Positions 1 through 63,294 of a DNA stretch of 64,000 nucleotides are shown here, piece after piece. The stretch spans positions 71,710 through 135,709 of the forward strand of contig JASHOK010000006.1 in assembly GCA_030041175.1 (NCBI GenBank), given 5' to 3'. The notes under the pieces are model-generated. The model did no database searches and was not told the DNA's origin. It was given only the letters and a program-made list of their open reading frames with translations. A program made the position numbers and the translations under genes. Source of the DNA: Thermoplasmata archaeon (GTDB lineage Archaea; Thermoplasmatota; Thermoplasmata; Lutacidiplasmatales; UBA184). How positions within the stretch are numbered: position 1 is the stretch's first letter; the number at the start of each line of letters is the position of its first letter.

Positions 1-683
1 GATTCGCCGGACCCCACGCCAAGGAGTCCGACGGCCGCTCCGGCCACGGCGAACTGTATGGAGAGCGTCCAGAACGTAGTCGCCGCGCTCGAGGTCCGGC
101 GCAACAAGACCGAACCCGATGCGAACGCCATCACCGCCGCGAACACGAATAGCGGGCCGACGAGACCGCGACCGGCGGGGCTTGCGGCGCCCGGTAACGC
201 GAGTACGGCCACGCCGGCAAAGCCGATCAGCAGACCTGCAACGCCAGGGCCCCCGAACCGTTCGGACGGAAGCAACCGGTACCCGATCAGTGCGCTGGCC
301 AGAGGCGCCGAAGCGGTCAGGACGGCGGCAAACCCGCCGGACACCGACGATTCGCCGACGTAGAGGAGAGCGCCATAGCCGGCGATCATGAGCAGCCCGC
401 CGAAGGCCACCGCCGGTAGCAACTCCGCCCTCGTCGGCCGCGGAGCTTTGAGCAGAATCGCGATCGGTACGAGCGCGAGGGCGGTCAGGAGATACCGGAC
501 CGAGGCAAACAGCAGCGGGGGTGCGCCGGCGACAATTCCGGCACGGATCACCGGAAACGCTGACCCCCAGAAGACTCCCAGGAGAACCACGAGCAGGAGA
601 TCGGCCGTGCCCGGATCGATGGGGGCTGAGCTCCGACCGGTCGGCGCGGGTGGTGCGGCCGGCGCGGCGCTCGAGTCAGACAC
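1..683 (-). CDS. DMT/EamA-family membrane transporter (3' end cut by window edge)
   Basis: Not in the ORF track because it runs off the edge. My minus-strand translation from GTG at 683 reads VSDSS..IDPGTADLLLVVLLGVFWGSAFPVIRAGIVAG..LLFASVRYLLTALALVPIAILL..GLLMIAGYGALLYVGE. It shows successive hydrophobic helices and an EamA-like WGS.F..IR motif. The GTG overlaps the stop of the upstream gene (GTGTCTGA). The start choice is uncertain. Confidence 0.6.
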   Translation of the reverse strand, partial: MSDSSAAPAAPPAPTGRSSAPIDPGTADLLLVVLLGVFWGSAFPVIRAGIVAGAPPLLFASVRYLLTALALVPIAILLKAPRPTRAELLPAVAFGGLLMIAGYGALLYVGESSVSGGFAAVLTASAPLASALIGYRLLPSERFGGPGVAGLLIGFAGVAVLALPGAASPAGRGLVGPLFVFAAVMAFASGSVLLRRTSSAATTFWTLSIQFAVAGAAVGLLGVGSGE

Positions 684-1926
684 GCTTGCCTCGGTCCTTG
701 GAAGTGGGAGTGGGCGCAGAGGCCGCCGCACGTTCTGTCTCGAGTAGCCGACGCTTGGTTTCGGGACCTCCCTCGGCCGAGTACTGCCCGATCCCGCCCC
801 GGGATGGGACGACCCGGTGGCAGGGAATGACAACGACCGCGGGGTTGTGGGCGCAGGCATTCCCGACGGCGCGTGCCGCCGTAGGTTCTCCAAGGCGGCG
901 GGCGATGTCGGCATAGGTGCGGGTTTGACCGGGAGGGATTCGGCGGAGTTCCTCCAGGACTCTCCGCTCGAAGGGGGAGACGTCCAGGTCCACGGGAAGA
1001 TCTCGCAGATCGCCGGTCCCGGTCCGGATATGCTCAATGATTCGGTGGAGAAGTGGGTGGCTTCGGTCGTCGCTGCGCGCGGGCATGCGGCGAAGGAGGC
1101 GGACCGCCGCGATCCGATCTCCGCGCATGGCGAGCTCTACGTAGAGGTCCAGTTCGGTGGAGAACTCGGCGAAGTGCTCCGTCGCCGGGTGGCTCTGACT
1201 CGGACCCTCGGGCGGGTTCGGTAGGCTGATCTCGTGCACCGCCGACCGGATCACGGCGGATTCGGCCGCCCGAAGGTGCTCTTCGGCCGTGCTGCGGCCC
1301 AGGGACAATCGCCGAGCCACCTCCCGAACGTCGGCACGGCGTGGTACCTCGTAGTATCCAGCGCGGACCGCCTCGAGCAGCACTTCCGACTGGCGCGGAG
1401 TCAGGCGCGGGCCGCTCGGGATCTGTCGGTCAAGTTCCGTCCGGAGCTTGGTCGGAGAGAGCCGGCGCTTCGAGACCAGCGCCGCTCGAGCGGACCATGC
1501 GGCCGGGGGTGCAGCCCCGGCCTCGGAGGTCGATAGGAAACGGACGCGCAATCGCCCGTCCCGCATCTGGAGCGGAGGGAGGATGAAGCCGCCTCCGGCG
1601 GCGATCCGCTGGAGAACACTGGTCTCTGAGGCCGCCGGCGCGTATGCGAAGGTCAGCGGTACCTCGCCGGATGCGCTCAGCAGGACCGTTGACGGATCCC
1701 ACCGCGTGTCGTCCCGGATCTCGGCGACGGCGGCTACGGGACCGGAGCACCGAACAGCCCACCGAAAGCCCAGGGGTCGGATCGCCCACGACAGCGTGGG
1801 ATGCCGTCTCGCAAGGTCCGCCAGCGGAGACTGTGTGGAACAGTCCCATTCCACGACGAACGGGTCCAGCCTACCCGTTCCCACGCCGGGTGGAGCGTCA
1901 TCCTGGGCCGCAAGTGTCGCGCGCAC
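676..1926 (-). CDS. HTH_10 (Bat-type) regulator domain fused to methylated-DNA-protein-cysteine methyltransferase (MGMT/Ogt)
   Basis: The C-terminus carries SPFERRVLEELRRIPPGQTRTYADIARRLG..ARAVGNACAHNPAVVVIPCHRVV, which is the MGMT active site PCHRV plus its HTH. The middle carries LTPRQSEVLLEAVRAGYYEVPRRADVREVARRLSLGRSTAEEHLRAAESAV, a typical archaeal HTH_10 motif. Confidence 0.85.
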   Translation of the reverse strand: MRATLAAQDDAPPGVGTGRLDPFVVEWDCSTQSPLADLARRHPTLSWAIRPLGFRWAVRCSGPVAAVAEIRDDTRWDPSTVLLSASGEVPLTFAYAPAASETSVLQRIAAGGGFILPPLQMRDGRLRVRFLSTSEAGAAPPAAWSARAALVSKRRLSPTKLRTELDRQIPSGPRLTPRQSEVLLEAVRAGYYEVPRRADVREVARRLSLGRSTAEEHLRAAESAVIRSAVHEISLPNPPEGPSQSHPATEHFAEFSTELDLYVELAMRGDRIAAVRLLRRMPARSDDRSHPLLHRIIEHIRTGTGDLRDLPVDLDVSPFERRVLEELRRIPPGQTRTYADIARRLGEPTAARAVGNACAHNPAVVVIPCHRVVPSRGGIGQYSAEGGPETKRRLLETERAAASAPTPTSKDRGKRV

Positions 1927-3565: not shown

Positions 3566-4369
3566 GTGGTTTCCCGAGGGTCGGTCCGAGTGGTCGCTGG
3601 CGATGCGCGCTCGATGGGGAGCGTGGCGTCGGGCTCGGTGGCCCTCGTGGTGACCTCGCCGCCCTATCCCATGATTCCGCAATGGGATCCCCTGTTCGCG
3701 AGCTGGGGGGCGACCGAATTCGAAGAGATGCACCGGGAGCTGGACCGCGTGTGGGCCGAGTGTGCACGAGCGCTGGTTCCCGGCGGTCTCCTGGCCGTCA
3801 ACATCGGGGATGCCCTGCGCAGCCAGGACGGCGAGTTTCAGCTCTGGCCGAACCACGCGCGGGTGATGCAGGCTGCAACCGGACTCGGGCTACGGGCACT
3901 GCCCTACGTCCTGTGGAAAAAGCCGACCAACAAGCCCAACGCCTTCCTCGGTTCCGGCTTTCTGCCCCCCAACGCCTACGTGACGCTGGACTGCGAGTTC
4001 ATTCTGCTGTTCCGGAAAGGGGGACTGCGCCGGTTCCCCTCCGGCTCGGCGGTCCGACGACAGAGCCAGTATCGCAAGGATGAGCGAGATCGCTGGTTCT
4101 CCCAGGTGTGGGAGGGGGTTCGTGGCCGCGCCCAGTCGGCGCACGACGGACGCACGGCCGCCTTCCCCGCGGAGATTCCGTGGAGGCTCATCCGGATGTT
4201 CTCGGTCATCGGCGACACCGTTCTCGACCCGTTCGCGGGCACTGGTACGACGCTCTGGGAAGCGGCCCGCCTGGGTCGGAATGCCATCGGGGTCGAGCTG
4301 GACCCGACCCGGGTCCGAGAGCTTCGCCGGACCAGTGTGCGACTCGCCGGACGCGGTAGCCCATCCTAG
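3566..4369 (+). CDS. Site-specific DNA methyltransferase, beta-class N4-C/N6-A (orphan; no nuclease seen)
   Basis: Catalytic motif IV reads VALVVTSPPYP near the N-terminus. AdoMet motif I reads TVLDPFAGTGTTLWEAARLGRNAIGVELD near the C-terminus. This motif order is typical of the N4/N6 (D12/ParB-less) MTase family. GTG start. Confidence 0.85.
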   Translation: MVSRGSVRVVAGDARSMGSVASGSVALVVTSPPYPMIPQWDPLFASWGATEFEEMHRELDRVWAECARALVPGGLLAVNIGDALRSQDGEFQLWPNHARVMQAATGLGLRALPYVLWKKPTNKPNAFLGSGFLPPNAYVTLDCEFILLFRKGGLRRFPSGSAVRRQSQYRKDERDRWFSQVWEGVRGRAQSAHDGRTAAFPAEIPWRLIRMFSVIGDTVLDPFAGTGTTLWEAARLGRNAIGVELDPTRVRELRRTSVRLAGRGSPS

Positions 4370-4881
4370 AGCTGACGGTGCTGGACCTCTTCCTCGACGG
4401 CACGCAGGAGGTACTTGAGCGACGCGTCCGACAACCGGTCCATGTGCAAGAGGAGATAGTGCAGGTAGATCCGCTCGGGACGGCGGGAAGGGCCGGGCGT
4501 ATGGGGCCGCGTCCCCGGCGTCGGCGGTTCTGGACTGGCGGTCATTTCGTCGAGCGTCGGCTGATGATGCTCGTGGCCGGCCCCGTGGAAGCTTCGGCCG
4601 GTCTCCCCCACCAGGGGTGGATGGATGCGAGCCACCGGGTCCTCCGCGGTCTCGGAGTCTTCCTCCGTCTCCGACATCGTCGCGGCGGACGCGGACAGCC
4701 GCGGAGTTCCCGGACCGGGAGGCGGTGGCACCGCCTTCAGAAAAGGGTGGGCCGGCCGGCTCGGGTCCTGCATCTCCTCGATGGAGCGTCCGGTGACGTC
4801 CTCCACGATATGCCGCAGGTTCCAGGAGTCACGTCGACGGCGTGCCGGTCCCTCCTGGGTCGCGGGAGCGATCTCCGCCAT
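4366..4881 (-). CDS. Hypothetical acidic/Pro-rich protein with C-terminal helix, last gene of the T4SS-like operon
   Basis: 171-aa ORF with high GC3 in the C-terminal helix ERIYLHYLLLHMDRLSDASLKYLLRAVEEEV. It overlaps the tail of the upstream ATPase gene by 53 nt and the stop codon of the convergent MTase by 4 nt. No recognisable domain. Confidence 0.45.
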   Translation of the reverse strand: MAEIAPATQEGPARRRRDSWNLRHIVEDVTGRSIEEMQDPSRPAHPFLKAVPPPPGPGTPRLSASAATMSETEEDSETAEDPVARIHPPLVGETGRSFHGAGHEHHQPTLDEMTASPEPPTPGTRPHTPGPSRRPERIYLHYLLLHMDRLSDASLKYLLRAVEEEVQHRQL

Positions 4882-6592
4882 CGTGAGGAGCCTCCCGAAC
4901 CGGCGGACTTAAACGTGCCGTTCGAGCCGAACTCGAGCCGGGTTCTCGAGTATCGAGGGATCCCTCCGGTAGCCCTTCCAGCCACTCGTACTCGGGGGTC
5001 GTGGCCACGATGGCAAGGGGCAGGTGCTGGGGCCCGAAGCGTAGGAGGCCCTCCGAATAGCCCGCCTCCGCCGGAAGTCGGGCCCGAGGCAGCCACTCGG
5101 CTTCTGCTTCGGTGAGCCGAAAGAAGTCCCGGGTCTCCGGGGAGACCTCGTTCAGGCGGAGCAGGAAGGTGGCGCGCAGGTTGCGCAGCAGGGACCGGCC
5201 CGGTGCGGTGACGAGGAAGTCGTCGGGGCTTTGGCTGAGTACGACCAGTCCCGCGTGGTAGTGACGGACGTGACGAACCAGCTGATCCAGAAACTCCAGG
5301 GTCGCAGGGTGCCGGGCGAGGTAGTGCGCCTCGTCGACCACCACGAGCTTGGGTCGATCGTCGGCCCGGAGCCGCGCCGTGAGCGCATCCAGCGCATAGG
5401 TCAGGTGGAACGGCAGTTGCTCAACCGGCACGTTGTGGAAATCTAGGTCCAACGGGGTTCCCTCGAGCGACACGGTCGTCGGGCCATCGAGATACCGCAG
5501 GGAGCCGGCCGCGAATACGGCGAGAAGGTCCCTCAGACGATCGGCGCCGGCCCGGCCGGCGAGATCCGCCAGGAGGTCCGACCACTGGGGGACCCGCGTT
5601 CCCTCCCGATACAGCCGGCTGACCGCGGTGTCCAGGAAGGAGCTCTCCGCATCGGAGAGGCTCGGGAACAATGCTCGCAGCATGGTGCCCACGCGGGCGG
5701 CCTTTCCCTCCCGGTCGCCCGCCGTCGACGCGGGATCGAGCGGATTCAGGCGACCCGGGCCCTGGGGCCCGAGCTCCACGACCTCCCCGCCGAGCTGCCG
5801 GGTCAGCCGGGCCAGCTCGCCCAAGGGGTCGAGGAAGAAGAGCTGCGTGTCGGGCTCGCACCAGCGGGACCGGAGAGCCCATAGCGCCGCTGCAAACGAC
5901 TTGCCGGAGCCGGTGCCGCCGAAGATCCCCCAGGAGTGACTGCTGTGAGACCACCGGTCGAGGAAGATCGGGTTGGCATCCGCGAGGAGGAGCCCGACGA
6001 GGATTCCGTGTGGTTCGTGGACGCCCTCGTCCACGAATGGAAACAGGGCGGTGACGGCATCCGTGGCCAGCGTGTGCCAGTACCCCGCCGGCCGAGGTCC
6101 CCGGTCCGGCAGTGTCAGATCCCGAGGTAGCAAGCCGACCTCGAACGTTGGGACGCGGCATCGGAAGCCGAGTCCGTTCAGCCGATGGACCAGTTTCTTG
6201 CGGGCCTGCTCAGCCGGCTCTCGCTGCTTTCCAAAGGCGTGAAAGCTCAGACCGAGATTCCAGAGGTCCTGGTCCCGGGCCGCCACCCGGGCGGCTAGGT
6301 CGCGGGCCGTCTCAGCGTCACGGGCGAGTTCGGAAGGACGGGCCCCTGCGCGGTTCACCCTCGTTTCCAGGTCGGCCTCCGCAGTCGCGGCGGCTCTTTC
6401 GGCGAGGCTGAGCGCTTCCGATCGCGGCAGCCGGTCGAGCGTCAATCGGAGCCCTGCCGCCTCTGATGTCGGCAGCACAGTACCGAGGAATCCGAAGGGT
6501 ACTGTGGGGGGCAGTTCGGTCACCAAGAGGGGTGCATCCACCCGGTTTCGAGCGGACGACCAGCTACGTCCCTCTCCGAGCCTCGCCGGCAT
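4829..6592 (-). CDS. VirB4/TrbE/CedB-like secretion ATPase (HerA-FtsK superfamily)
   Basis: Walker A reads WGIFGGTGSGKSF and Walker B reads KLVVVDEAHYL. The layout (N-terminal non-ATPase domain followed by the P-loop domain, ..FFLDPLGE.., ..LVVLSQSPDDF..) matches conjugative VirB4-type ATPases. It sits immediately downstream of the small membrane-protein genes. Confidence 0.8.
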   Translation of the reverse strand: MPARLGEGRSWSSARNRVDAPLLVTELPPTVPFGFLGTVLPTSEAAGLRLTLDRLPRSEALSLAERAAATAEADLETRVNRAGARPSELARDAETARDLAARVAARDQDLWNLGLSFHAFGKQREPAEQARKKLVHRLNGLGFRCRVPTFEVGLLPRDLTLPDRGPRPAGYWHTLATDAVTALFPFVDEGVHEPHGILVGLLLADANPIFLDRWSHSSHSWGIFGGTGSGKSFAAALWALRSRWCEPDTQLFFLDPLGELARLTRQLGGEVVELGPQGPGRLNPLDPASTAGDREGKAARVGTMLRALFPSLSDAESSFLDTAVSRLYREGTRVPQWSDLLADLAGRAGADRLRDLLAVFAAGSLRYLDGPTTVSLEGTPLDLDFHNVPVEQLPFHLTYALDALTARLRADDRPKLVVVDEAHYLARHPATLEFLDQLVRHVRHYHAGLVVLSQSPDDFLVTAPGRSLLRNLRATFLLRLNEVSPETRDFFRLTEAEAEWLPRARLPAEAGYSEGLLRFGPQHLPLAIVATTPEYEWLEGLPEGSLDTREPGSSSARTARLSPPVREAPHDGGDRSRDPGGTGTPST

Positions 6593-6593
6593 G

Positions 6594-6959
6594 TCAGGGG
6601 AGTACTCCTGCCAGGCGCGACGCTGGCCAAAGACTGGCTGCGACCACCATCAGGGCCCAGACGGTACCTGACGGCGCGAAGACGCCAACCGCAGCGATGC
6701 CCGACCACCCGGCCACGCCGGTCGCCCCTAGCGGTGCGAGGCGCCGGAGGCAGTATCCTGTCTTATGTCGGTTCCGAACCGTGTTCACGGTTCGAATCCA
6801 GACGATCCAAGATACAAGGACCGAGAGACAGAGTACGGCGGGCTGAAGCGCCGGCCACGCGACGGCCCCCGCCGCAGCGAGCACCGTACCCGCGACCGCG
6901 AGCGGCAAGGGATCGAGCTCGCGGGCCGACGCGATGCGGCTTCCGCCCGTCACGGACAT
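6594..6959 (-). CDS. Small integral membrane protein (3-4 predicted helices)
   Basis: 121 aa, with hydrophobic segments LAVAGTVLAAAGAVAWPAL, VLCLSVLVSWIVWI, GWSGIAAVGVFA and WALMVVAASLW. Its stop lies directly adjacent to the ATPase start (6594 vs 6592). Confidence 0.6.
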   Translation of the reverse strand: MSVTGGSRIASARELDPLPLAVAGTVLAAAGAVAWPALQPAVLCLSVLVSWIVWIRTVNTVRNRHKTGYCLRRLAPLGATGVAGWSGIAAVGVFAPSGTVWALMVVAASLWPASRLAGVLP

Positions 6960-6976
6960 GCAGCGCCTCCGGTCCG

Positions 6977-7684
6977 TCAGGGCAGCCAGTCTCGTTGCAC
7001 GGGCTCCGCCGGCACGCCGAGCCGCTGGAGGGCCTCGAGAAGGCCGAGCGTCGCGGACTCACTGTCCCCGCCGTCCCCGCCTATTCTCAAGTCTACCCTC
7101 CGCCGGAGGCGAGAGCCCACTAGCAACCGTACGAGCTCGCAGTACGAACGCAGGGCTGCATGGTCAGGGTCGCTCGTTCGGCCGGGCGCCGGCAGGTAGG
7201 GGACCGGCGAGAATCGCTCGGTCGTTACCTCGATCGCCACCGGAGCGTCGAGGGCCACCAGCGCCGCCCGCCAGCCTTCGAAGAGCCGTTGCAGTTCCTC
7301 CGGGGGCAGATACGCGACCGGGACGCCCCGCGCCCGGATGCCTCCGCCGGAGCGCCGGGTCAGCCCGCGGCGCGGGGATTTCCGTCCCGGGTCTCCACCC
7401 AGCATCGTGCGGAGCCCGTACCGGCAGTAGCCGAGGGCATACTCGTCCAAGGGCTGTCCTTCCACTCGAACGAAGGCCAAGAGGGCTCCGGCGCCCAGGA
7501 ACGGAAGCCAGACCACGGCCGAACTGGCCGAGGCCACAATGGCACCGACAATGGCGGCGCAGAGGAAGGTGGCAAGATTCCGCCCCGAGTCGAAGGGCCC
7601 CAGGTGGAGCCGTCGTTCCGCGAGCGGAAAGAACGGGATGTCCGCCAGAGGAGGCTCCCGGTCGACCACGGCGGTTCCCCTCAC
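6977..7684 (-). CDS. Membrane-hairpin protein, possibly VirB3/PrgI-like, with a soluble C-terminal domain
   Basis: 235 aa. The N-terminus reads FFPLAERRLHLGPFDSGRNLATFLCAAIVGAIVASASSAVVWLPFLGAGALLAFVRVEGQPLDEYALGY, two adjacent hydrophobic helices as in PrgI/VirB3-type proteins. There is a 4-nt overlap with the upstream gene. The family assignment is an inference. Confidence 0.55.
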   Translation of the reverse strand: MRGTAVVDREPPLADIPFFPLAERRLHLGPFDSGRNLATFLCAAIVGAIVASASSAVVWLPFLGAGALLAFVRVEGQPLDEYALGYCRYGLRTMLGGDPGRKSPRRGLTRRSGGGIRARGVPVAYLPPEELQRLFEGWRAALVALDAPVAIEVTTERFSPVPYLPAPGRTSDPDHAALRSYCELVRLLVGSRLRRRVDLRIGGDGGDSESATLGLLEALQRLGVPAEPVQRDWLP

Positions 7685-8847
7685 CCTCTCCGCGGTCCGG
7701 AGGTTGGCGGTGTGGCCCCGACCCGGGAGGAGTGCCCCGGAACCGGCGGCGTGGGGGCCGGGACAGTTCGTAGATGCCGGGCGAGGTGGCGACTGCCTTC
7801 GATCACCGCGTGTCCGGCGGCGAGGGCTACGCCTCCCGGCAGGGGTGCCTTCCCAAACTGGTTCGCGATGGACCGGACCGAGGAACCGACTTGCGCGGCT
7901 CGTCCCGACGAGGGGACGGCGGACGCCAGTGAATTTGCAGCCCCTTGAGAGGTCAGTGAGGCGACCTCCAGGCCCCGCTGCAGTCCGCCGGTGAGAGTGG
8001 CGCCCGCGGAGGGGAAACCCATGCCTCCAAGTTGCGTCCGCGAGATCGAGATCAGGTAGGGGGTCCCCACTGCGATCGAGAGATAGGCCAACAGAAGGAT
8101 GATCGAAGAGGAGCCCACGGCGAGCTCCAAAGGGACCAGCATCGCCGCCGGGACGAAGGCCAGCTCGACGAGCAGCGTCCAGCCGCGTCGTGCCAGCCCG
8201 GAGAGCGGCGGAAGCGCCCAGAGGAGCGTGAACAGCGGTAGCAGTACGACCAGAACGGCGATCATCGCGTCCCGGAGAGCGACCACCATCGCGAGCGCGA
8301 GGACCATCGAGAACAGGGCGAAACTGACCACGAAGGCGAGGACTCCGTTATCCCAGGAGAACGCGGCACCGCCCGCGGGAAAGAGATTCGTCCACTGACG
8401 CCAAGCCCCCCCGTCGAAGCCCGACAGAAGCCGGAACGTGTCGCCCGAGAGACTGAGAAGGGCGGCCACGAGGGGGATGGTGAAGTTCGCTCCCAGTACC
8501 GCGATGACCAGTCGCGGGAGCAAGGGCTCCAGCCGGGTCCCGACGGTGTACGAGAACGACCGGAGCAAGTAGAGCCCGGCCAGGGCCACGAGCACCAGCG
8601 CGATGCTCGGATCTACGAGATTCGTGACCAGAAAGTCGCTGAAGCGAACCGCAACGGCCAGGAAACCGTTTCCTGCACCCGGGTGGGCCAGTGAAGGGTA
8701 GAGCGAAGGTGCCGACAGCTCCGGAACAACGAGGTTGTCGTACGTCGGCTGAATGATCAGTTCCAGAACTGCGGTACCCGCCGTGAACAGCCCGAACAGG
8801 ATGGCCTGTGCCACGGCATTCCAGTCGATGGAGTTCCAGTCCACCAT
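7681..8847 (-). CDS. Polytopic membrane protein, VirB6/CedA-like candidate
   Basis: 388 aa with about 7-8 long hydrophobic segments (e.g. AQAILFGLFTAGTAVLELII, LVLVALAGLYLL, VIAVLGANFTIPLVAALLSL, AFVVSFALFSMVLALAMVVAL, LVVLLPLFTLLWALPPL, LLVELAFVPAAMLVPLELAV, ILLLAYLSIAVG) followed by a Gly/Ser/Ala-rich soluble tail. The assignment is by position and topology only. Confidence 0.6.
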   Translation of the reverse strand: MVDWNSIDWNAVAQAILFGLFTAGTAVLELIIQPTYDNLVVPELSAPSLYPSLAHPGAGNGFLAVAVRFSDFLVTNLVDPSIALVLVALAGLYLLRSFSYTVGTRLEPLLPRLVIAVLGANFTIPLVAALLSLSGDTFRLLSGFDGGAWRQWTNLFPAGGAAFSWDNGVLAFVVSFALFSMVLALAMVVALRDAMIAVLVVLLPLFTLLWALPPLSGLARRGWTLLVELAFVPAAMLVPLELAVGSSSIILLLAYLSIAVGTPYLISISRTQLGGMGFPSAGATLTGGLQRGLEVASLTSQGAANSLASAVPSSGRAAQVGSSVRSIANQFGKAPLPGGVALAAGHAVIEGSRHLARHLRTVPAPTPPVPGHSSRVGATPPTSGPRRG

Positions 8848-8864
8848 GGGGTCCTACTGCCCCG

Positions 8865-9245
8865 TCAGGTGCCGGTCACGACCCAGTTCGCCAGGGCCCA
8901 GATGAGGCCGCTGATCGCGCCGACGAACAGCAGGGTGCCAATCAGCGCGTCTCGGGCCCGTTCCTTCGCCAGGACTTTCTTCATGGAATCGTGAGAGAAC
9001 CAACTGAGCGCGACCCGCGCCCAGACCAACGAGAGCAGCCCTCCTCCCGCGACTGCGGCGAGCGTCACGAGCCGGTTGACGGCGGCGCTGAAGTTCGAGA
9101 CGGCTGGGTTCGTACTCGAGGCCCCACGAAGATCGCTCGGGACGGAGAGCACGTGCACCGGCGCCGCCACCGGCGTCGAAGCCACGGAAAGGACGATCGA
9201 GACCGCAGCGATGGCGAGGAGGGCCACGGAGACGGGAGGCTTCAT
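8865..9245 (-). CDS. Candidate VirB2/TrbC-like (CedA1/TedC-like) pilin
   Basis: I used the internal ATG at 9245, which forms an ATGA overlap with the upstream stop, giving a 126-aa product. It has a signal peptide MKPPVSVALLAIAAVSIVLSVAST. Two hydrophobic helices follow, AVNRLVTLAAVAGGGLLSLVWARVALSWF and ALIGTLLFVGAISGLIWALANWV, joined by the charged loop SHDSMKKVLAKERARD. This is the VirB2 topology. The longer 213-aa ORF in the track is Arg/Gly-rich upstream and overlaps the previous gene. Confidence 0.55.
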   Translation of the reverse strand: MKPPVSVALLAIAAVSIVLSVASTPVAAPVHVLSVPSDLRGASSTNPAVSNFSAAVNRLVTLAAVAGGGLLSLVWARVALSWFSHDSMKKVLAKERARDALIGTLLFVGAISGLIWALANWVVTGT

Positions 9246-10828
9246 CGGCTCGCCCCCGGGGGCTCCGCGCCCTGCCATCGAAGGATCTCGTCGGACCCGG
9301 GCCCAGCCTCCGAGACGACCGAGCCGGCTCGGAGCAGGGCCCGGAGCGCCACCGAAACCGACTCGGCAGACTCGCCCGCTTCCTCGCAGAGCAACAATAG
9401 GGTCTCCCGGTCGATTACGTGCTCCCTCTCGAGGATCGAGCGGACGGTCGGCAGGCCGGAGTGACCCGGGGCCGATTCGAGGGGAGGCTTCCCCCGTCGG
9501 CGCCACTTCAGCAGAAACAGGCCCGCGCCAATGGCGAGCAATAGGGTGAGGGCTCCCACACCAACGGCCGCGGAGGAAACGGTAGCGGATGCTGGAGGAT
9601 CCGGCGCCGGTTCGATGAGGACCTGACGGCTCAGTGTGACAGTGACCCCGAGAGCATCCGTTACCTCGACGTGTTCGACGTAGAGGCCGGGCTCCGGGGG
9701 GTCGAAAACCTGGACGAGAGCCCCCGGGCCGGAGAGAGAACCGTTGGTTTCCTCGCCATCGGACAACGTCGCGCGGTAGATGTAGGGAGGGAGCCCGCCA
9801 GAGACTCCAATCCGCACCTCGATCGCGTCACCCGACACCATCCCTCCGTCCGTGATGTTGACGCCGAGCGGCGGCAGGATCGTGAGCGTCGCGGAGGTGT
9901 TGTCCACAACTCCCAGGCCATCGAGGAGTGAGAGATTGAGCGTCAGCGTACCGGGCTGCAGGAAGGTCAGATTCCGAGCGAAGATTCCATCAGCCGGAAA
10001 GGCCCCAACGGAGGTAGTCCCGGGCGACAGCGGTAGAGAGCTCGACAGCGTCCAGCGGAACGGGGGCGTTCCGTAGGCGACGAGGACGTTCAGAAGGATC
10101 GGCGTACCAACCTCGCCGACCGACGAGGCCGGTAGCATCTGCACCGTCGTTCCCGGTACGACCGTGAACGTCGCCCCGACCGCGGTGGCGTTCACCCCTA
10201 ACGCGTCGCTCACCCGGACGACGATCGACGCGGGACCCGTGCTCGCGAACTCGACGCGTTCCGAGTACTCTCCGTCCTGATAGGCCGTAAAGTTCCCCGA
10301 TACCCCCTCCCCGGAGGCGTTCCAGGTTCCAACAAAGGGCGAAACTCCGCCTTGGAGATCCAGATAGAATGGCACTGGGACGTCGAGCTCGACCTGGCCG
10401 TACGGGAAGGCCACGGAGACCGACGGCGGCGGAACGACCCTGACCGACGCAGTCGCCGTGCCTACGGTCCCCTCGGACGTCTCGACTTGGAGGGTGACTC
10501 CCAGGAGGCCGGGAAGCTGGGCTACTAAGGTCCAGGTAGGTCCCGAGCCGGTAGCCCCCTCGCTATCGATCCACCGAAAGACGTACGGAACCACGGACGG
10601 GACTTGGAGGATCGCGGAGACCTCGAACGGGTGCCCCACATCGGCCGGGTCCGCCGACGCGTGGATGACGACATCGAGGGTTTCGGAAGCCGTCGGGGCC
10701 GTTGCAACCGCGGTCGGTGCCCAAAACAGCAGCAGAAAGACCGGGAGCACCGGGATCAGGACCCACGTCGTCCAGGTCCGCTGAGATCTCCGTCGGTCCC
10801 GAATCCCCGGTCCATGACTCGCCCGCAT
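9242..10828 (-). CDS. Surface protein with about 4 PKD-like repeats, C-terminal TM anchor and a small cytoplasmic helical (wHTH-like) domain
   Basis: The N-terminal TM/signal segment reads WTTWVLIPVLPVFLLLFWAP. Repeated PKD-type motifs are VVPYVFRWI, GGVSPFVGTW, GTPPFRWTL and GGLPPYIYRATL. A TM segment follows (AAVGVGALTLLLAIGAGLFLLKWRRRG), then LPTVRSILEREHVIDRETLLLLCEEAGESAESVSVALRALLRAGSV. Confidence 0.7.
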   Translation of the reverse strand: MRASHGPGIRDRRRSQRTWTTWVLIPVLPVFLLLFWAPTAVATAPTASETLDVVIHASADPADVGHPFEVSAILQVPSVVPYVFRWIDSEGATGSGPTWTLVAQLPGLLGVTLQVETSEGTVGTATASVRVVPPPSVSVAFPYGQVELDVPVPFYLDLQGGVSPFVGTWNASGEGVSGNFTAYQDGEYSERVEFASTGPASIVVRVSDALGVNATAVGATFTVVPGTTVQMLPASSVGEVGTPILLNVLVAYGTPPFRWTLSSSLPLSPGTTSVGAFPADGIFARNLTFLQPGTLTLNLSLLDGLGVVDNTSATLTILPPLGVNITDGGMVSGDAIEVRIGVSGGLPPYIYRATLSDGEETNGSLSGPGALVQVFDPPEPGLYVEHVEVTDALGVTVTLSRQVLIEPAPDPPASATVSSAAVGVGALTLLLAIGAGLFLLKWRRRGKPPLESAPGHSGLPTVRSILEREHVIDRETLLLLCEEAGESAESVSVALRALLRAGSVVSEAGPGSDEILRWQGAEPPGASR

Positions 10829-10899
10829 CGAACCGCCCCGGTGTTCGACCGGGGGCAGGGTATTTTCGCGAAACCGGCCCGATGAACGGTGGAGGGTGC

Positions 10900-29640: not shown

Positions 29641-32600
29641 TCACTGCGACGGCGGCGGACTCGCGGGGGGCTGGCTCTCGTCCCACTCTTTCGGCGGGGG
29701 CGCCGACTTCCATTCCTGCGCCGGCGGCGGTGAGGGCGCGCCGGGTCGGGAGCTCGCTCGGCGAGCGTAGTAGATCATGCCCACCAGGAACACGACGGCG
29801 AGGATGCCCAGGAGCACGACCAGTCCCTCGAAGAGCAGTCCCGGTCCGGAGCTCGTCGTCGGTGTCGACGTGAGGGTGACGTTGAGGTAGCCCGTGCCTT
29901 GGGACGGGACGGAGACGTTGTTGAAGTAGGTCTCGTACCCGGTCGCAGAGACCTCCACGGCGGCGACGCCCGCGGCGACGCTGGCCGTGACCGCACCGTT
30001 CGCGAGCACGACGGGGGTCCCGTCCACCCACGCATGGGCCGCCACGGGGAGGACGGCCAGCTTGAGCGAGCCGGGCAGGAGCGTGAAGGCCACCGACGCC
30101 GTGGCCCCGGAGCTTCCGACCTGTACGGGTTCGGATGCGGGGGACGGCGTGTAGCCCGTCGCAACGAAGGAGGCGGTATAGCTGCCCGCCGCGACGTCGA
30201 ACGTGACCGTCGGGGTGTCGCTCGAGGAGCTCTGGGGGAGGTTGTCCGTGCCGGCACCGGTGATGGTGGCCGTCCACTCTGCGCCGATGCTGAGGCCCGT
30301 CGCCGTGATCGTGAGAGGCACTCCGACCGCAAACGTGACGTCGAAGCTCGTCGGCGCCCCGTCGACCGTGACGGTCGGCGACGCGATGACCACGTATCCA
30401 CTCGGCCCGGACACCGCGACCGCGTACGTTCCATCCGCGAGAGGAATCTCGATCGTGGAGGTCGTCGAGCCCTGCGTCATGCCGGCGACCGACACGCTCC
30501 AGTTGTCCCCCGCCGGGAGACCGCTGGCGCTGAACGTCACCACAAAGGTCACCTCGGGTACGAGCGGGACGTAGTCCCCTCCGGTCAGGATCAGCCCGTT
30601 GTCGGTGAACGGAAGCGGTCCTCCGCTGTAGCTGGTCCAGTAGTTGCCGCCCTGATAGTTCGTGTCCACGATGCTGCCCGTCAGGATGAAGCCGTTGACG
30701 ACCCGCTGGTCGGTGAGAGGCTGCCGGGAAACGTTCCAGGCATCGGCGTAGGGAACGAAGCCACACTCGCCGAACTGCGCGCACAGGAACGGGTCGAACG
30801 GGTCCGTGAGCGCCGAGAGCGGTACCTCGAAGGCGTTGTCGTAGATCAGGTCTCCCGACTCGGACTCGTTAACGCCCGTCACGTTGGCGCCGCTGTCGTC
30901 GATCGAGCCCAGGCTGGTGGTGTCGATCGTTCCCGATACGAAGGTGTTCCCCCAGATCGTGTTGCCGGAACCGCCGTAGAGCAGGATGGCACCGCCCTGG
31001 TCTTCGAACGTGTTCGAGGCGATGAGCACGTTCTCGCAGCCCCACACGAGCACCGCGCTCTCCGGGTACTCCGTCTGGAAGAGGCTCATCCACCCCGAGA
31101 TCCCCGTTCCGTCAACGAGGGAGATGTCGGACGCGTCGTAGAAGTTGATGCCGAGGTCGTTCGAGGTCGGAAGACCCAGGCCGGCCGTGAACCCCGGAAC
31201 GTACGGCGCGGTGAACTCGAACGCCGGGATGTTGATGAGGAACGACGGCGGGGTGACGTCGACGAAGGCGGTCGTGTTCGCCAGGAGCAGTCCGGGGAAG
31301 ACCGGGAAGAGATAATCGTCCCACTGCGCGAACACGGCGTCCAAGGGGCCGACCTGGTTGTTGTCCAAGACGTAGGGGTCCGCCGCCGTTCCGGTGCCGC
31401 TCGAGGAGATCGCCCCGAGCTCACTGTTGTTGAGCGCAAAGAGGGGCGTATAGATCCCCTGCGACCTGTCGAGCGCCAGGTCTTCGGTCAGGGTTCGCGG
31501 GCTCCCGTCGAGCGTTAGGCTCCGGGCCACGGGGTCGTGGTCACTCAGCAGGAAGTCGAGATAGAACGTGCCGTGCGACGGCAGGTAAAACGTGGTCGGC
31601 GAGACCGCCGGGCTCGGGACCCACTGCGCCTGCTTCGTCTTCTCGGTGCCGCCGGGGTTGACGAAGATGAACGAATTGGTCGGGTGCAGATGCACCGTGA
31701 CCGCTACGGCGCCGGAGGCCCCGGAGTAGTTCCAAAGCCCGCCGACGAACGCCGGGCCGCTTCGGACCTCCGCGATGGGGTGAGTGCCGCCACTGGAATA
31801 GACGAGCAGGCCGACGGAGGTCTCGCCGGTCTCCTCCCCGGCGTTGTACGCCGAGGGCACAGTTTCCATCTGATCGGCGGTCTCATTCCAGAACTGAAGG
31901 TTGACGGTGGCGTTCGCCTCGTAGAAGGCGGTCGTGTCGCCGTCGTCGTTGCCCAGGAGGTCGATCTCCATGTCGTTGATGAGGCCGATCGGGTCGTACT
32001 GGTAGCCGTCCGACTGGTACTGCGGAGTAAGGGCGGGCGCCGTCGGCGTCCCGACCGTGGAGTTGAAGATGAGCCAGTCGAACGAGGCGGCCTGGTGGAA
32101 CGTCGCGTTGGTCACGCTGTAGTTGAAGTAGAAGGCCGGCCGGTCGTCGATGACGGTCGTATTCAGGTACATCGTGAGCGAGAACGGGTACCCGACCGTG
32201 ATGGCGGGCCCATACCCCTGGTAGAGGTACGGGAAGTCGGCCGTGGTTCCGTTGGGGCTGAACTCGTACACGCTGTTGGCGGGGAAGTACCCGGAGGCGT
32301 TCGAGAAGTTCCAGACTTCGTCCCCGAAGACCAGTTGCTGCGTGCTCGGCGTGTAGTCGACGTAGTTCTGGCTCCAGTACTGGTACGTGTCATTCCCGAA
32401 GACCGTGACGTTCGCGGCGACCGAGTTGAGCTGGATGCCGTAGGTGTTCGGTCCGTCGCCGTCCACGTAGAGCGACTGCAGGTTCGTGATGTTGACCGTC
32501 CCCGCCACGCTCGTCGTGTTGAGCTCGTAGGGCGTGAGCGTGCCGGAGTCGTTGCGGAGGCCGATGTCGGCCACCCCCATCGGAGCCGGAGCGTCGACGT

Positions 32601-32910
32601 AGCTGGGAGCTACCTGCTGATGGATCTGCGTGACGGCATTGAGGAAGTTGGGGAGGTGGATATGGGTCGGGTCGATCCCTTTCGCCCGGAGGCCCTCTTC
32701 GATGGCTTGGACCTTCTGGACCGCCGCCGGGGTCGTCGATCCGGCGGCGGAAGCGGTCGTCGCTTCCGCGGAGAGGGAGGCGGAGGCGGGAGCGGCGCGC
32801 GGCGAACTGGCCGTTGGAACCGCAACGGTCAAGGCGACCCCCAGGCCGCTCACGGACACCACGACCGCAAGGGCCAGTACGCACGCCGTGCGGCTCGCAG
32901 AGCGCCTCAT
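29641..32910 (-). CDS. Large membrane-anchored surface protein: thermopsin-like (peptidase A5) N-terminal region, beta-helix repeats, Ig/PEGA-like domains, TM anchor, Pro-rich tail
   Basis: The signal peptide reads MRRSASRTACVLALAVVVSVSGLGVAL. PAPMGVADIGL...G...PY...T.S..G..NI..L and many N-x-S/T sequons resemble thermopsin family proteins. CENVLIASNTFEDQGGAILLYGGSGNTIWGNTF is a right-handed beta-helix repeat. The C-terminal anchor reads LLFEGLVVLLGILAVVFLVGMIYYARR. Confidence 0.75.
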   Translation of the reverse strand: MRRSASRTACVLALAVVVSVSGLGVALTVAVPTASSPRAAPASASLSAEATTASAAGSTTPAAVQKVQAIEEGLRAKGIDPTHIHLPNFLNAVTQIHQQVAPSYVDAPAPMGVADIGLRNDSGTLTPYELNTTSVAGTVNITNLQSLYVDGDGPNTYGIQLNSVAANVTVFGNDTYQYWSQNYVDYTPSTQQLVFGDEVWNFSNASGYFPANSVYEFSPNGTTADFPYLYQGYGPAITVGYPFSLTMYLNTTVIDDRPAFYFNYSVTNATFHQAASFDWLIFNSTVGTPTAPALTPQYQSDGYQYDPIGLINDMEIDLLGNDDGDTTAFYEANATVNLQFWNETADQMETVPSAYNAGEETGETSVGLLVYSSGGTHPIAEVRSGPAFVGGLWNYSGASGAVAVTVHLHPTNSFIFVNPGGTEKTKQAQWVPSPAVSPTTFYLPSHGTFYLDFLLSDHDPVARSLTLDGSPRTLTEDLALDRSQGIYTPLFALNNSELGAISSSGTGTAADPYVLDNNQVGPLDAVFAQWDDYLFPVFPGLLLANTTAFVDVTPPSFLINIPAFEFTAPYVPGFTAGLGLPTSNDLGINFYDASDISLVDGTGISGWMSLFQTEYPESAVLVWGCENVLIASNTFEDQGGAILLYGGSGNTIWGNTFVSGTIDTTSLGSIDDSGANVTGVNESESGDLIYDNAFEVPLSALTDPFDPFLCAQFGECGFVPYADAWNVSRQPLTDQRVVNGFILTGSIVDTNYQGGNYWTSYSGGPLPFTDNGLILTGGDYVPLVPEVTFVVTFSASGLPAGDNWSVSVAGMTQGSTTSTIEIPLADGTYAVAVSGPSGYVVIASPTVTVDGAPTSFDVTFAVGVPLTITATGLSIGAEWTATITGAGTDNLPQSSSSDTPTVTFDVAAGSYTASFVATGYTPSPASEPVQVGSSGATASVAFTLLPGSLKLAVLPVAAHAWVDGTPVVLANGAVTASVAAGVAAVEVSATGYETYFNNVSVPSQGTGYLNVTLTSTPTTSSGPGLLFEGLVVLLGILAVVFLVGMIYYARRASSRPGAPSPPPAQEWKSAPPPKEWDESQPPASPPPSQ

Positions 32911-46847: not shown

Positions 46848-46955
46848 TGTCGGAGGGGGGATTTGAACCCCCGACCCCAGGATCTCTCCAGCGGCTCGGT
46901 CCGTGGCCGAAGCGCTCTATGAGTCCCGTGCTCTGCCAGGCTGAGCCACTCCGAC
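46848..46955 (-). tRNA. tRNA with CAU anticodon (elongator Met, or Ile2 if modified) with a 34-nt intron at 37/38
   Basis: The minus strand reads GTCGGAG-TG-GCTC-AGCCTGGCA-GAGC-A-CGGGA-CTCATA[34 nt]A-TCCTG-GGGTC-GGGGG-TTCAAAT-CCCCC-CTCCGAC-A. The G1-C72 pair argues against an initiator. The intron can form an AGCG/CGCT helix plus a partial BHB. Confidence 0.85.
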
Positions 46956-56214: not shown

Positions 56215-56224
56215 GGAGACCCTC

Positions 56225-57244
56225 TTACGAGGTCACCCCCGGGACGACCAGGTTGGGCACGAAGTATCGCATGAAGAGCCACCCGGAGGCCAGCATGATG
56301 GTGGCGTGCTGGAGTCCCTCGGAGATTCGGCCGTTGATGATGACGCCCGACATGATCCCGTCCCCGATCGCGTGCACGATGACGGCCACCATGAACGCGA
56401 GGAAGAGCTCCGGGATGGCACTGAAGTTGAGGGAGATGGCGGACGCTCCCCCGGCACTGGTGCCGGAGTTCGCGATGCTGCTGCCCGCGGTGATCATCTG
56501 CGGCAGGAAGACTGCCGCCATGATGTAGATCGTGACGAGGAACACGTAGAACGAGATGTAGATGACCGTGAGATAGGTCAGCATCGTGATCTGGCGCTCC
56601 TGGGTCGTGATCTGCACGTCCCGGGTGTCGCGCGCGACCATCGACAGAACATCGGCCACGTTGCCGCCGGCCTCGTTGGCCTTGATGATGATCGAGACGG
56701 TCCGAGCGACGAGCGGTGTCTGCACCCGGTCCTTGAACAGGGAGAGCGCCGTGGAGACCGGGACCCCCCATTCGAGCTGGCTCGCCATCTTCTTGATCTC
56801 GCCCGTCAGAAGGTCGTAGCGGCCCTTGCTCGCCACGATGATGGCGTCCGGCAGCGTCATGCCGAACCGGCCGGCTTCGGCCACATCGCGGAGGAAGTCC
56901 GGGAGGCGGCTCTCGATCCGGCTGATGCGTCGGTACTGCGCGCTCGCGAGGAATCCGTATGGGCCGATGATGACCAGCGTGCCCATCACGGCGAAGTCGA
57001 TGGCGGGGTTCGCCCCCACGGGCTCACCGGGTCGGACAAGGATCGATAGGATCCCGAGGTAGTTGAGCGCCGCGATCGCGTACAGCACGAACCCGATCGG
57101 CAGGCAGACGTAGAGCGCGAGCCGCTCCGAGGCGATCGTCGGGCGCACCTTCTCGGTGCCGAGCGTGACCGAGGCGCCGAGGGTTCGAGGGGCGGTGACC
57201 GTTGTCGTTGCCGTCGCGGTTGCCATCTTAGACCTCCGAAGCAA
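56225..57244 (-). CDS. Type II secretion F-domain membrane protein (half-size FlaJ/TadC-like platform subunit)
   Basis: 339 aa: RLPDFLRDVAEAGRFGMTLPDAIIVASKGRYDLLTGEIKKMASQLEWGVPVSTALSLF, flanked by TM helices. It contains one T2SSF domain rather than the two found in full-length FlaJ. Confidence 0.85.
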   Translation of the reverse strand: MLRRSKMATATATTTVTAPRTLGASVTLGTEKVRPTIASERLALYVCLPIGFVLYAIAALNYLGILSILVRPGEPVGANPAIDFAVMGTLVIIGPYGFLASAQYRRISRIESRLPDFLRDVAEAGRFGMTLPDAIIVASKGRYDLLTGEIKKMASQLEWGVPVSTALSLFKDRVQTPLVARTVSIIIKANEAGGNVADVLSMVARDTRDVQITTQERQITMLTYLTVIYISFYVFLVTIYIMAAVFLPQMITAGSSIANSGTSAGGASAISLNFSAIPELFLAFMVAVIVHAIGDGIMSGVIINGRISEGLQHATIMLASGWLFMRYFVPNLVVPGVTS

Positions 57245-59884: not shown

Positions 59885-59886
59885 GG

Positions 59887-63188: not shown

Positions 63189-63294
63189 TCCCGGCTGCCT
63201 GACTCGAACAGGCGACCTGAGGATGTCCATGGGGGCCGCCGGCGACCGGCGGTCTCGACTACAGTCCCCCGCTCTACCACTGAGCTAAGCCGGG
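63189..63294 (-). tRNA. tRNA-Tyr (anticodon GUA) with a 34-nt intron at 37/38
   Basis: The minus strand reads CCCGGCT-TA-GCTC-AGTGGTA-GAGC-G-GGGGA-CTGTAG[34 nt]A-TCCTC-AGGTC-GCCTG-TTCGAGT-CAGGC-AGCCGGG-A. The C1-G72 pair is the archaeal/eukaryal Tyr identity pair. The anticodon pairs with the intron 3' end (CUGU/AUGG) between the 3-nt bulges AGU and ACA. Confidence 0.9.

Follow-up and report, generated by a model that had tools for sequence, protein, structure and literature searches.

A block of seven genes in a 64-kb stretch of DNA from a Thermoplasmata archaeon (contig JASHOK010000006.1, positions 71,710 to 135,709; the whole of this stretch is referred to as the window) raises the question of whether a conjugation-derived membrane machine can belong to the cell that carries it rather than to a mobile element and, if so, what such a machine would transport. 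Precedents are provided by Ced and Ted, chromosomal DNA importers composed of VirB2, VirB6 and VirB4-type components (PMC9905601, PMC11868833), and the original prediction for this locus, made from the sequence alone, placed the block beside them. Our analysis indicates that the seven genes very likely encode a domesticated machine of the type IV secretion system (T4SS) type. On balance, we favor the view that they constitute a minimal T4SS or mating-pair-formation (MPF) apparatus of the MPF-FATA class, which has become a fixed trait of its host and most likely exchanges chromosomal DNA within the lineage. The data considered cover the 64 kb of this genome and 10 kb on either side of the loci of its relatives, which comprise 82 related clade loci, two on contigs of metagenome-assembled genomes (MAGs) from NCBI (L001, L002) and 80 on metagenome contigs, mostly from peat and soil. 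In the order of transcription, the block and its borders consist of the following features:

10861 to 10866, minus strand: AAAATA, a TATA-box-like element located 33-38 nt upstream of the ATG of g1, in the 71-nt spacer after the fibrillarin stop codon
9242 to 10828, minus strand: g1, a 528-aa surface protein with Ig/PKD-like beta-sandwich repeats, putatively an adhesin or recognition protein
8865 to 9245, minus strand: g2, a 126-aa predicted pre-pilin of the VirB2 / T4SS_pilin class, with a signal peptide, a variable linker and a two-helix hairpin with a basic loop
7681 to 8847, minus strand: g3, a 388-aa polytopic, VirB6-like membrane protein, a candidate channel or platform
6977 to 7684, minus strand: g4, a 235-aa PrgI/VirB3-like protein with a membrane hairpin and a cytoplasmic domain of about 140 aa
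6594 to 6959, minus strand: g5, a 121-aa small polytopic membrane protein of no known family, with three transmembrane segments
4829 to 6592, minus strand: g6, a 587-aa soluble ATPase of the VirB4 family (MPF-FATA type), with the Walker A motif GGTGSGKS and the Walker B motif VVVDEAH
4366 to 4881, minus strand: g7, a 171-aa lineage-specific cytoplasmic protein, whose start overlaps the 3' end of the ATPase gene by 53 nt
3566 to 4369, plus strand: an orphan N6/N4 DNA methyltransferase (Pfam N6_N4_Mtase, E = 4.8e-35), convergent with g7

All seven open reading frames (ORFs) are present on the minus strand at 4366-10828, exactly where they had been placed, and their predicted topologies agree with those described earlier on the basis of hydrophobicity profiles. 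They are tightly packed and form one operon with its own conserved TATA-like element. The first gene starts 71 nt after the fibrillarin stop codon and, to judge from the coordinates, overlaps g2 by 4 nt; g2 and g3 are separated by 17 nt, g3 overlaps g4 (which starts with GTG) by 4 nt, and gaps of 17 nt and 1 nt separate g4 from g5 and g5 from g6, respectively. The arrangement ends with a g6/g7 overlap of 53 nt, which was also seen in one relative, and an overlap of 4 nt between the stop codons of g7 and the convergent methyltransferase gene. The packing had been described as 4-nt overlaps or gaps of at most 18 nt, which is accurate for every junction except g6/g7, whose longer overlap was implied by the very coordinates given at the time. 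A similar correction applies to base composition, which had been likened to that of the surrounding genes: the overall GC content is indeed equal to that of the neighbors, but the GC content at third codon positions (GC3) is slightly lower in the cluster (0.75-0.84) than in 30 other genes of the window (0.851±0.043).

AAAATA is the only A/T-rich element in the spacer between fibrillarin and g1. An element of the form RAADTA recurs at a median distance of 37 nt from the fibrillarin stop codon in 24 of 40 distinct orthologous spacers, compared with 1.2% of random 90-nt windows, a degree of conservation that backs the earlier guess of a promoter at this site. Its position would fit an archaeal TATA box for a transcript whose leader is short or missing; a scan for sigma-70 promoters gave no match, as expected for an archaeon.

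VirB4 is the one ubiquitous marker of T4SSs, and the ATPase encoded by g6, in which both of the motifs noted earlier are found, provides the clearest link of the operon to these systems. In NCBIfam, g6 matches the models of the VirB4-like CD1110 family (9e-32), the VirB4 protein Mbov_0397 of a mycoplasma integrative conjugative element (ICE; 2e-24), VirB4_CagE (2e-16) and TraC (4e-14), while HerA reaches 0.009 and CedD gives a purely local match (45 residues, 1.5e-8, 34 bits against a cutoff of 600), the only match to a Ced family in the NCBIfam scan of the seven proteins. All of the g6 matches lie below the equivalog cutoffs, which marks it as a divergent member of the VirB4 family. The sole match by sequence in the PDB is 4AG5, the C-terminal domain of VirB4 from Thermoanaerobacter; a profile of the g6 family finds it with an E-value of 4.5e-33 and 118 bits, compared with at most 32 bits (best E-value 2.8e-7) for HerA-like chains. 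Among plasmid-borne homologs, the nearest are VirB4 proteins from Actinobacteria, haloarchaea and Firmicutes, with an identity of 24-35%. On these sequence criteria, we classify g6 as a divergent VirB4 of the monoderm/archaeal MPF-FATA class and not as a member of the HerA clade. The VirB4-type layout originally proposed for this protein is thus upheld, and no affiliation with HerA or FtsK emerged.

A second, independent signal comes from g2. Its longest ORF extends to 9506 (with a GTG start), but the ATG at 9245 is favored by orthologs that are likewise 126 aa long. The product is predicted to have a signal peptide and two transmembrane helices, and its AlphaFold2 model shows a signal helix followed by a hairpin (H47-87/H92-124) with a predicted local distance difference test score (pLDDT) of 72. 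In an alignment of 45 homologs, the N-terminal signal and linker region varies freely, and the C-terminal 80 residues are almost invariant. A profile search over 1.84 billion representatives returned only 35 clusters, hence the family is narrow. The window protein itself has no direct Pfam match; among its close relatives, T4SS_pilin (PF18895) is by far the commonest family, with matches in 15 of the 45 (best 0.0056), and it recurs in 18 of 28 distant relatives (best 3.4e-8); three of the 28 match T4SS_CagC, the VirB2 homolog of Helicobacter pylori. Ten of the same 28 match the NCBIfam model of the pilin-like conjugal transfer protein Mbov_0395, which connects the pilin with the ATPase, as Mbov_0395 and the g6-matching Mbov_0397 belong to the same mycoplasma ICE family. 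Moreover, g2 is 48% identical to a gene of Aciduliprofundum boonei that has a confident T4SS_pilin match. This transitive homology consistently assigns g2 to the VirB2 class of pilins, in agreement with the topology and family first suggested for it.

The polytopic protein g3 is likely a homolog of VirB6, as judged from its structural model. It is predicted to contain at least six transmembrane helices, and AlphaFold2 yields a confident, all-helical model (pLDDT 78). When this model was compared by Foldseek with 350,542 PDB chains, TrwI/VirB6 of plasmid R388 took the first three places (probabilities 0.94, 0.95 and 0.72). The earlier description as a VirB6/CedA-like protein agrees with this ranking but not with the strength of the scores, which is low, or with the sequence profiles, which lend it no support. 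A tblastn search of 72,556 plasmids with g3 returned no match, and an hhalign comparison of its family with the 753-aa membrane protein encoded in an Embleya plasmid module was not significant. The closest counterpart found is a 422-aa neighbor of VirB4 in A. boonei, which shares 30% identity (1e-22). Precomputed annotations had flagged some g3 orthologs as PF19590; these flags were not reproduced by hmmscan even at E<=10 and were not used. Our literature search found no paper that names this family, which is presumably TrbL_3.

For g4, the individual signals are weak, yet they are consistent with a PrgI/VirB3-like protein. Its hydrophobic segment lies at residues 40-58. It gives weak matches to PrgI in Pfam (0.011) and SCO6880_fam in NCBIfam (0.0099), the former recurring in four of 22 orthologs. 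In hhalign, the protein aligns over its whole length (245 columns) with a 349-aa protein of the Embleya plasmid annotated as a PrgI family protein (E-value 1.4e-4, probability 53%), and it also matches a 246-aa protein of A. boonei (probability 96%, E-value 8e-9); a search of the PDB with the g4 family sequence profile gave nothing meaningful. The order PrgI, small protein, VirB4 is the same here as on the Embleya plasmid. Taken together, these matches and the gene order are consistent with the VirB3/PrgI-like identity first proposed for this two-helix protein, each signal being weak. The small protein in this series, g5, has a positional ortholog (median length 129 aa, two to four transmembrane segments) in 63 of 70 loci despite low sequence identity.

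The terminal gene product, g7, is predicted to be soluble, as is g6, and mildly acidic (26 D+E versus 19 K+R), as the label of an acidic tail protein had implied. It has no match in Pfam or the PDB, but it is present in all 72 loci that reach its position. Its alignment contains 36 invariant positions, situated in conserved though not wholly invariant stretches (RRRxSWxL..IVEDV, DPV..YPPL..GR..HG..EHH and PERIYLHYLLLHxDRL). About 1.1 kb of extra DNA lies between the ATPase gene and g7 in two loci (L060, L064). At the opposite end, g1 is the fastest-evolving member of the set (25-45% identity) and is absent from three loci. It has an N-terminal signal/anchor, a C-terminal transmembrane segment at residues 422-440 and a cytoplasmic tail of 88 aa. 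The anchored surface topology bears out its description as a PKD-repeat surface protein, whereas the repeat type itself has only a sub-cutoff Pfam match (PKD, E=0.0039); a weak match to the pilus protein PamR of the candidate phyla radiation (CPR) was also obtained (0.0012). Its counterpart in A. boonei is a 744-aa Big_7/Ig-like protein of the same architecture. In the loci without g1 (L035, L054, L079), a short, different ORF takes its place, and the distance between the fibrillarin and pilin genes is about 1 kb. The g1 tail (window 9242-9505, 88 aa, SILEREHVIDRETLLLLCEEAGES...) is conserved in the orthologs and looks like a small helical, winged-helix-like domain, which is unusual for an adhesin; a database protein (P0371) appears to be a frameshift fusion of this tail to the pilin. 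The gene set is larger than the "VirB2 + VirB6 + VirB4 only" that had been claimed, as it also includes the PrgI/VirB3-like g4 and, with g1, g5 and g7, three other conserved genes.

The evidence that the operon belongs to its host comes from its genomic setting. ATPase homologs are numerous in MAGs labelled "Thermoplasmata archaeon", and the window, L001 and L002 share the order DUF885, RidA, fibrillarin, the seven genes, methyltransferase and HPS-RraA, with Pfam-annotated flanks in L001 and L002 that contain housekeeping genes only within ±10 kb. In a tblastn survey based on the proteins of the window, every one of the 36 loci with sufficient room was found to have fibrillarin upstream of the block, and all 58 clade loci with room on the other side have the convergent methyltransferase downstream. 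The complete block is contained in 41 loci, all colinear, with ATPases that share 52-72% identity; conserved colinearity in 41 complete and 82 partial related loci goes far beyond chance. The pairwise distances of the ATPase and g3 rise in step with those of the housekeeping proteins on either side (Spearman 0.91, Mantel 0/999), and the correlation among the housekeeping genes themselves is lower (0.67-0.72). All ORFs are intact, and for the ATPase, pilin and g7, 96-99% of them stay within 15% of the median length. No relative was found in 2.9 million viral contigs. The comparison of synteny suggested earlier thus places the block at one site, from fibrillarin to methyltransferase, in all clade loci and never inside an integrated plasmid.

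The absence of mobility functions next to the cluster, another element of the original prediction, was likewise borne out. No VirD4-type coupling protein is encoded in the operon, the 64-kb window or the ±10 kb around annotated relatives; apart from g6, the window encodes an ABC ATPase, a PrkA-type AAA protein and two T2SSE ATPases as its P-loop proteins, and VirD4 is not among them. Relaxase or integrase domains were not detected either within the operon or beside it in the window, L001, L002 and the more distant locus L003, and no tRNA gene lies within 36 kb of the operon, the only ones in the window being located at 46.8, 61.5 and 63.2 kb. Plasmid versions of the module are organized differently. 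On a haloarchaeal plasmid, the homologous VirB4 gene is directly followed by a gene for a VirD4-type coupling protein, and on the actinobacterial Embleya plasmid, a coupling protein again follows directly, along with a relaxase-like protein and a cell-wall hydrolase; here, g7 and the chromosomal methyltransferase gene occupy the place of the coupling protein. In L003, whose ATPase is 41% identical, the adhesin, the pilin, g3, the ATPase and the N-terminal motif of g7 are retained, and the cluster is flanked by a class-I aminoacyl-tRNA synthetase gene and cell-envelope polysaccharide genes, with no mobile-element genes. Because of the invariant site, the co-divergence with the flanks, the intact ORFs, the lack of viral relatives and the different make-up of the plasmid versions, we regard the locus, at the level of comparative sequence analysis, as a fixed, vertically inherited and selectively maintained host trait and not as an ICE. 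The hosts are probably high-GC soil and peat Thermoplasmata of the Lutacidiplasmatales, or Terrestrial Miscellaneous Euryarchaeotal Group. Members of this group have been described as acid-soil archaea with a GC content of about 69%, in a study that makes no mention of pili, secretion or conjugation (PMC9287336).

The pilin family reaches beyond this clade to A. boonei T469 (Aboo_1063), which carries an expanded, chromosomal version of the same ordered cluster, consisting of an Ig-like anchored protein, a T4SS_pilin, four paralogs, a VirB6-like protein, a g4 homolog, a small membrane protein and VirB4. Identities amount to 48% for the pilin, 30% for the VirB6-like protein (1e-22) and 31% for VirB4 (6e-72). 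Thus, both clusters share the anchored Ig-like protein, the pilin, the VirB6-like and g4-like proteins, the small membrane protein and VirB4 in the same order, but the A. boonei cluster differs in having four extra paralogs of the "domain + pilin hairpin" type and small upstream ORFs, and in lacking g7. The paralogs in Aciduliprofundum (L088 10001-14132; L091 8985-12203), three to four per locus and 308-406 aa long, start with a globular domain and end in a pilin-type hairpin, the two being joined by a Gly-rich linker, an architecture which suggests that they may be minor or tip pilins carrying their own adhesin domain. The A. boonei block behaves like an island: it begins about 0.6 kb after a tRNA-Arg gene, and it recurs in a related MAG, where its ends are sharply defined and the neighboring genes differ on either side. 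Another distant pilin relative is found about 7 kb from a phage-type integrase gene, with a MazE gene on the same contig. Guglielmini et al. reported the only archaeal ICE of their study in A. boonei (PMC3158045), and VirB4 clusters in the Thermoplasmatales have already been catalogued, in Cuniculiplasma (the arCOG04034 cluster; PMC5155288) and in "E-plasma" (PMC10354927). The simplest history would be that an MPF-FATA element circulating in the Thermoplasmatota was captured by an ancestor of the soil lineage and then lost its mobility functions. Beyond these catalogue notes and the ICE call in A. boonei, our literature searches turned up no account of a comparable system in the Thermoplasmatota, in line with the earlier statement that none had been characterized there.

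In terms of function and gene logic, the closest known systems are Ted, with its true VirB4, and Ced, whereas the closest by sequence are MPF-FATA conjugation modules. The Ted system of the Thermoproteales (TedA/TedB/TedC) shares with the operon its chromosomal location, the lack of a relaxase, an ATPase of the true VirB4 clade, a VirB6-like protein and a VirB2-like pilin, and it is proposed to move cellular DNA, as we likewise propose here (PMC9905601). It differs in its phylum, and the operon additionally has a PrgI/VirB3-like protein, a tailed Ig/PKD adhesin and g7, and no Rad50/HerA neighborhood. A Caldivirga locus considered as a Ted comparator (L005) proved not to be Ted, its products being a FlaI-like ATPase, ParA, a 380-aa HerA-like ATPase and KaiC. 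The Ced system of the Sulfolobales and Desulfurococcales (CedA, A1, A2, B, CedD and CedE) is also domesticated, conjugation-derived and devoid of a coupling protein and relaxase (PMC9905601, PMC11868833), and it has a two-helix pilin-like protein, a polytopic VirB6-like protein and an ATPase of the FtsK/HerA superfamily. In contrast to the soluble VirB4 encoded by g6, CedB and CedD are HerA-clade enzymes, in many cases with transmembrane helices (PMC11868833); the Ced genes are dispersed and UV-induced, whereas those of the operon form one block; and Ced is said to lack VirB3 homologs (PMC11868833), whereas g4 is VirB3-like.

MPF-FATA modules, found in Firmicutes, Actinobacteria and Tenericutes and on archaeal plasmids, match the ATPase and the pilin more closely in sequence than any others, examples being the CD1110-family VirB4, the mycoplasma ICE proteins Mbov_0395/0397 and a haloarchaeal "transfer complex protein". 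They share the order PrgI-like protein, small protein, VirB4, but are borne on plasmids or ICEs and show an identity of only 24-35% to the operon; both plasmid loci examined have a VirD4-type gene immediately after that of VirB4, in the vicinity of relaxase, hydrolase or replication genes. Another parallel exists in the T4SSs of the Patescibacteria/CPR (PMC12102498), which are chromosomal, lineage-wide and relaxase-less, with a VirB4 nested in MPF-FATA and VirB2-like pilins of the T4SS_pilin family, but which are bacterial, tied to an epibiotic lifestyle and equipped with other accessory genes. The label of a Ced/Ted-like machine is therefore apt as far as structure and the chromosomal, relaxase-less status are concerned; by sequence, the operon is not a member of Ced but resembles MPF-FATA modules. 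Among host-owned, conjugation-derived machines, its own features are the PrgI/VirB3-like component, the T4SS_pilin-type pilin, the anchored, tailed Ig/PKD protein and g7.

The VirB4 ATPase and the VirB2-class pilin are thus identified, with probable VirB6-like and PrgI/VirB3-like partners, and the locus that encodes them is chromosomal, vertically inherited and relaxase-less. T4SSs of known structure, together with Ced and Ted (PMC9905601, PMC11868833), suggest by analogy how these parts may operate. Transcription would start at the operon's own TATA-like promoter, immediately after the fibrillarin gene. The pre-pilin g2 would enter the membrane via its signal peptide and then be processed, while the VirB6-like g3, the PrgI/VirB3-like g4 and the small g5 would form a membrane platform and channel. 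A hexamer of the VirB4 protein g6 would dock onto this platform, build a conjugative-type pilus by ATP-driven extraction of pilin and also power the translocation of the substrate. The variable, anchored g1 protein, with its Ig/PKD-like domains, would mediate cell-cell contact or partner recognition, and the cytoplasmic g7, presumably coupled to g6 in translation, may serve as an adaptor or substrate-handling factor. The outcome would be the exchange or import of chromosomal DNA between cells of the same lineage, as in the crenarchaeal Ced and Ted systems. Both the formation of a pilus and DNA as the substrate are thus suggested by comparison with other systems. As no coupling protein, relaxase, integrase or origin-bearing element lies alongside, the machine does not appear to move a plasmid, and since the operon comes without plasmid functions, the likeliest substrate would be cellular DNA passed between members of the lineage. 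Whether DNA is moved at all is a close call, which we judge, if anything, to lean slightly to the doubtful side.

Several observations weigh against the interpretation as a host-owned DNA exchange machine or against parts of it. The functional reading rests on analogy with other systems, and g5 and g7 have no assignable role. The Foldseek matches of g3 to TrwI/VirB6 have poor scores (E 0.12-0.28, TM 0.24-0.38), and the protein has no sequence-profile match in Pfam or the PDB. The hairpin model of g2 retrieved no conjugative pilin from the PDB with Foldseek, only coiled coils and HtrII at E>3, and its family sequence profile found no PDB chain at E<=10, although archaeal conjugative pilins, including the TedC and CedA1 pilus structures, have presumably been deposited there. 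Short helical hairpins are beyond the reach of Foldseek, so the empty structural search carries no information and does not count as a negative. The gene for a VirD4-type protein could reside in another part of the genome, as it does in Cuniculiplasma (PMC5155288), and archaeal relaxases are unknown (PMC9905601), which makes the absence of a relaxase weak evidence. Finally, distant relatives in A. boonei and in one MAG reside in island-like or integrase-bearing contexts. This last point bears on the idea that the block is an integrated conjugative element, or the decaying remnant of one, rather than a host function. Such an origin would also suit the MPF-FATA type of the components, the ICE reported in A. 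boonei, the methyltransferase (a common cargo of mobile elements), which is always adjacent in the clade, and a GC3 about 1-1.5 standard deviations below the window mean. Yet, position and order are the same in all 82 clade loci, whose clusters have diverged together with their flanks; the locus lacks genes for an integrase, a tRNA, replication or a coupling protein, and it has no boundary repeats; the operon lies 71 nt from fibrillarin and overlaps the methyltransferase gene; its ORFs are all intact and strongly conserved; and the viral collection yields no match and the plasmids none above about 35% identity. We therefore consider a mobile element at this site quite improbable. Even harder to credit is the notion that the operon is not T4SS-derived but combines a HerA/FtsK-type ATPase with unrelated membrane proteins, for instance in another envelope or secretion complex. 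Pfam alone, which gives weak DUF87/HerA-central and AAA_10 matches for g6, and the lack of family matches for g3, g5 and g7 would allow for it, but VirB4-specific models and a VirB4 structure score far above HerA, and independent pilin, PrgI and VirB6 signals coincide in one operon, ordered as in conjugation modules.

More serious, if still rather unlikely in our estimate, is a non-DNA role of the same domesticated machine, be it as an adhesive or biofilm pilus, in the secretion of proteins or effectors, or in contact-dependent interaction with other microbes. Its parts (VirB2, B3, B6 and B4) make up the core for pilus biogenesis, and DNA transfer in bacteria additionally needs VirD4, which is not present at the locus, whose first gene encodes a large, fast-evolving Ig/PKD-like surface protein. 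Furthermore, the chromosomal, relaxase-less T4SSs of the Patescibacteria, which likewise have a T4SS_pilin, have been proposed to act in something other than conjugation (PMC12102498), and relaxase-less ("MOBless") T4SSs of bacteria are often protein secretors (PMC3158045). However, Ced, the only chromosomal archaeal T4SS derivative to have been studied experimentally, moves DNA without VirD4 (PMC9905601, PMC11868833), and the operon and its conserved flanks contain no candidate effector, toxin or immunity genes. The exchange of chromosomal DNA within the lineage remains the reading we prefer.

Several observations concern the surroundings of the operon. The methyltransferase gene is constant within the clade, but it is missing beside the L003 cluster and lies outside the block common to two Aciduliprofundum loci; it was therefore rejected as a proven component of the system. 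In A. boonei, an N6_N4 methyltransferase gene (27% identical; L088 18382-20927) also converges on VirB4. The neighbors in the window are RidA and DUF885 beyond fibrillarin and an HPS/RraA fusion beyond the methyltransferase. Situated 2.4 kb from the end of the operon, a gene at 676-1926 (minus strand) encodes a fusion of HTH_10 with an O6-methylguanine-DNA methyltransferase DNA-binding domain; the gene at this position is not conserved, as an AlkZ-like repair glycosylase is found there in L001 and a DUF72 protein in L002. At 54418-60091 (minus strand), about 45 kb from the operon, two T2SSE (PilB/FlaI-type) ATPases, at 54418-56214 and 58238-60091 with two ORFs between them, mark a type IV pilus- or archaellum-like locus. 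In the Sulfolobales, Ced relies on type IV Ups pili for aggregation; by analogy, this pilus-like locus could be a functional partner of the operon. Elsewhere in the window, two tRNAs of 106-108 nt (46848-46955 and 63189-63294, both minus strand) were detected by Rfam but missed by ARAGORN and are probably intron-containing; two adjacent large adenylate/guanylate-cyclase-TPR fusion proteins are encoded at 41240-43891 and 44900-46828 (plus strand); and a 1089-aa thermopsin-family protease at 29641-32910 (minus strand) is consistent with an acidophilic Thermoplasmata host.

Experimental knowledge of host-owned conjugation machines is limited to hyperthermophilic Crenarchaeota, in the form of Ced and Ted, and Beltran et al. 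noted that such domestication is unreported outside their hosts (PMC9905601). It is tempting to speculate, as a tentative extension of our findings, that the operon represents a third independently domesticated archaeal conjugation machine, the first in the Thermoplasmatota (Euryarchaeota) and derived from MPF-FATA elements like those that persist in Aciduliprofundum, which exchanges chromosomal DNA by means of a pilus among Thermoplasmata of acid soil and peat, with g1 setting partner specificity and g7 replacing the functions of coupling protein and relaxase. If this is true, the capture of plasmid-transfer machinery for cellular use has occurred repeatedly, can begin from the monoderm MPF-FATA lineage and is not tied to extreme heat, the host lineage here being mesophilic soil and peat Thermoplasmata. 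With its seven genes, the operon is a minimal set for structural studies of an archaeal T4SS that has a VirB3-like component, and g7 is a candidate for a new accessory factor. The homologous cluster in the cultured A. boonei T469 makes the idea testable. Moreover, the machine may provide a mechanism of gene flow in an abundant, uncultured order of soil archaea.

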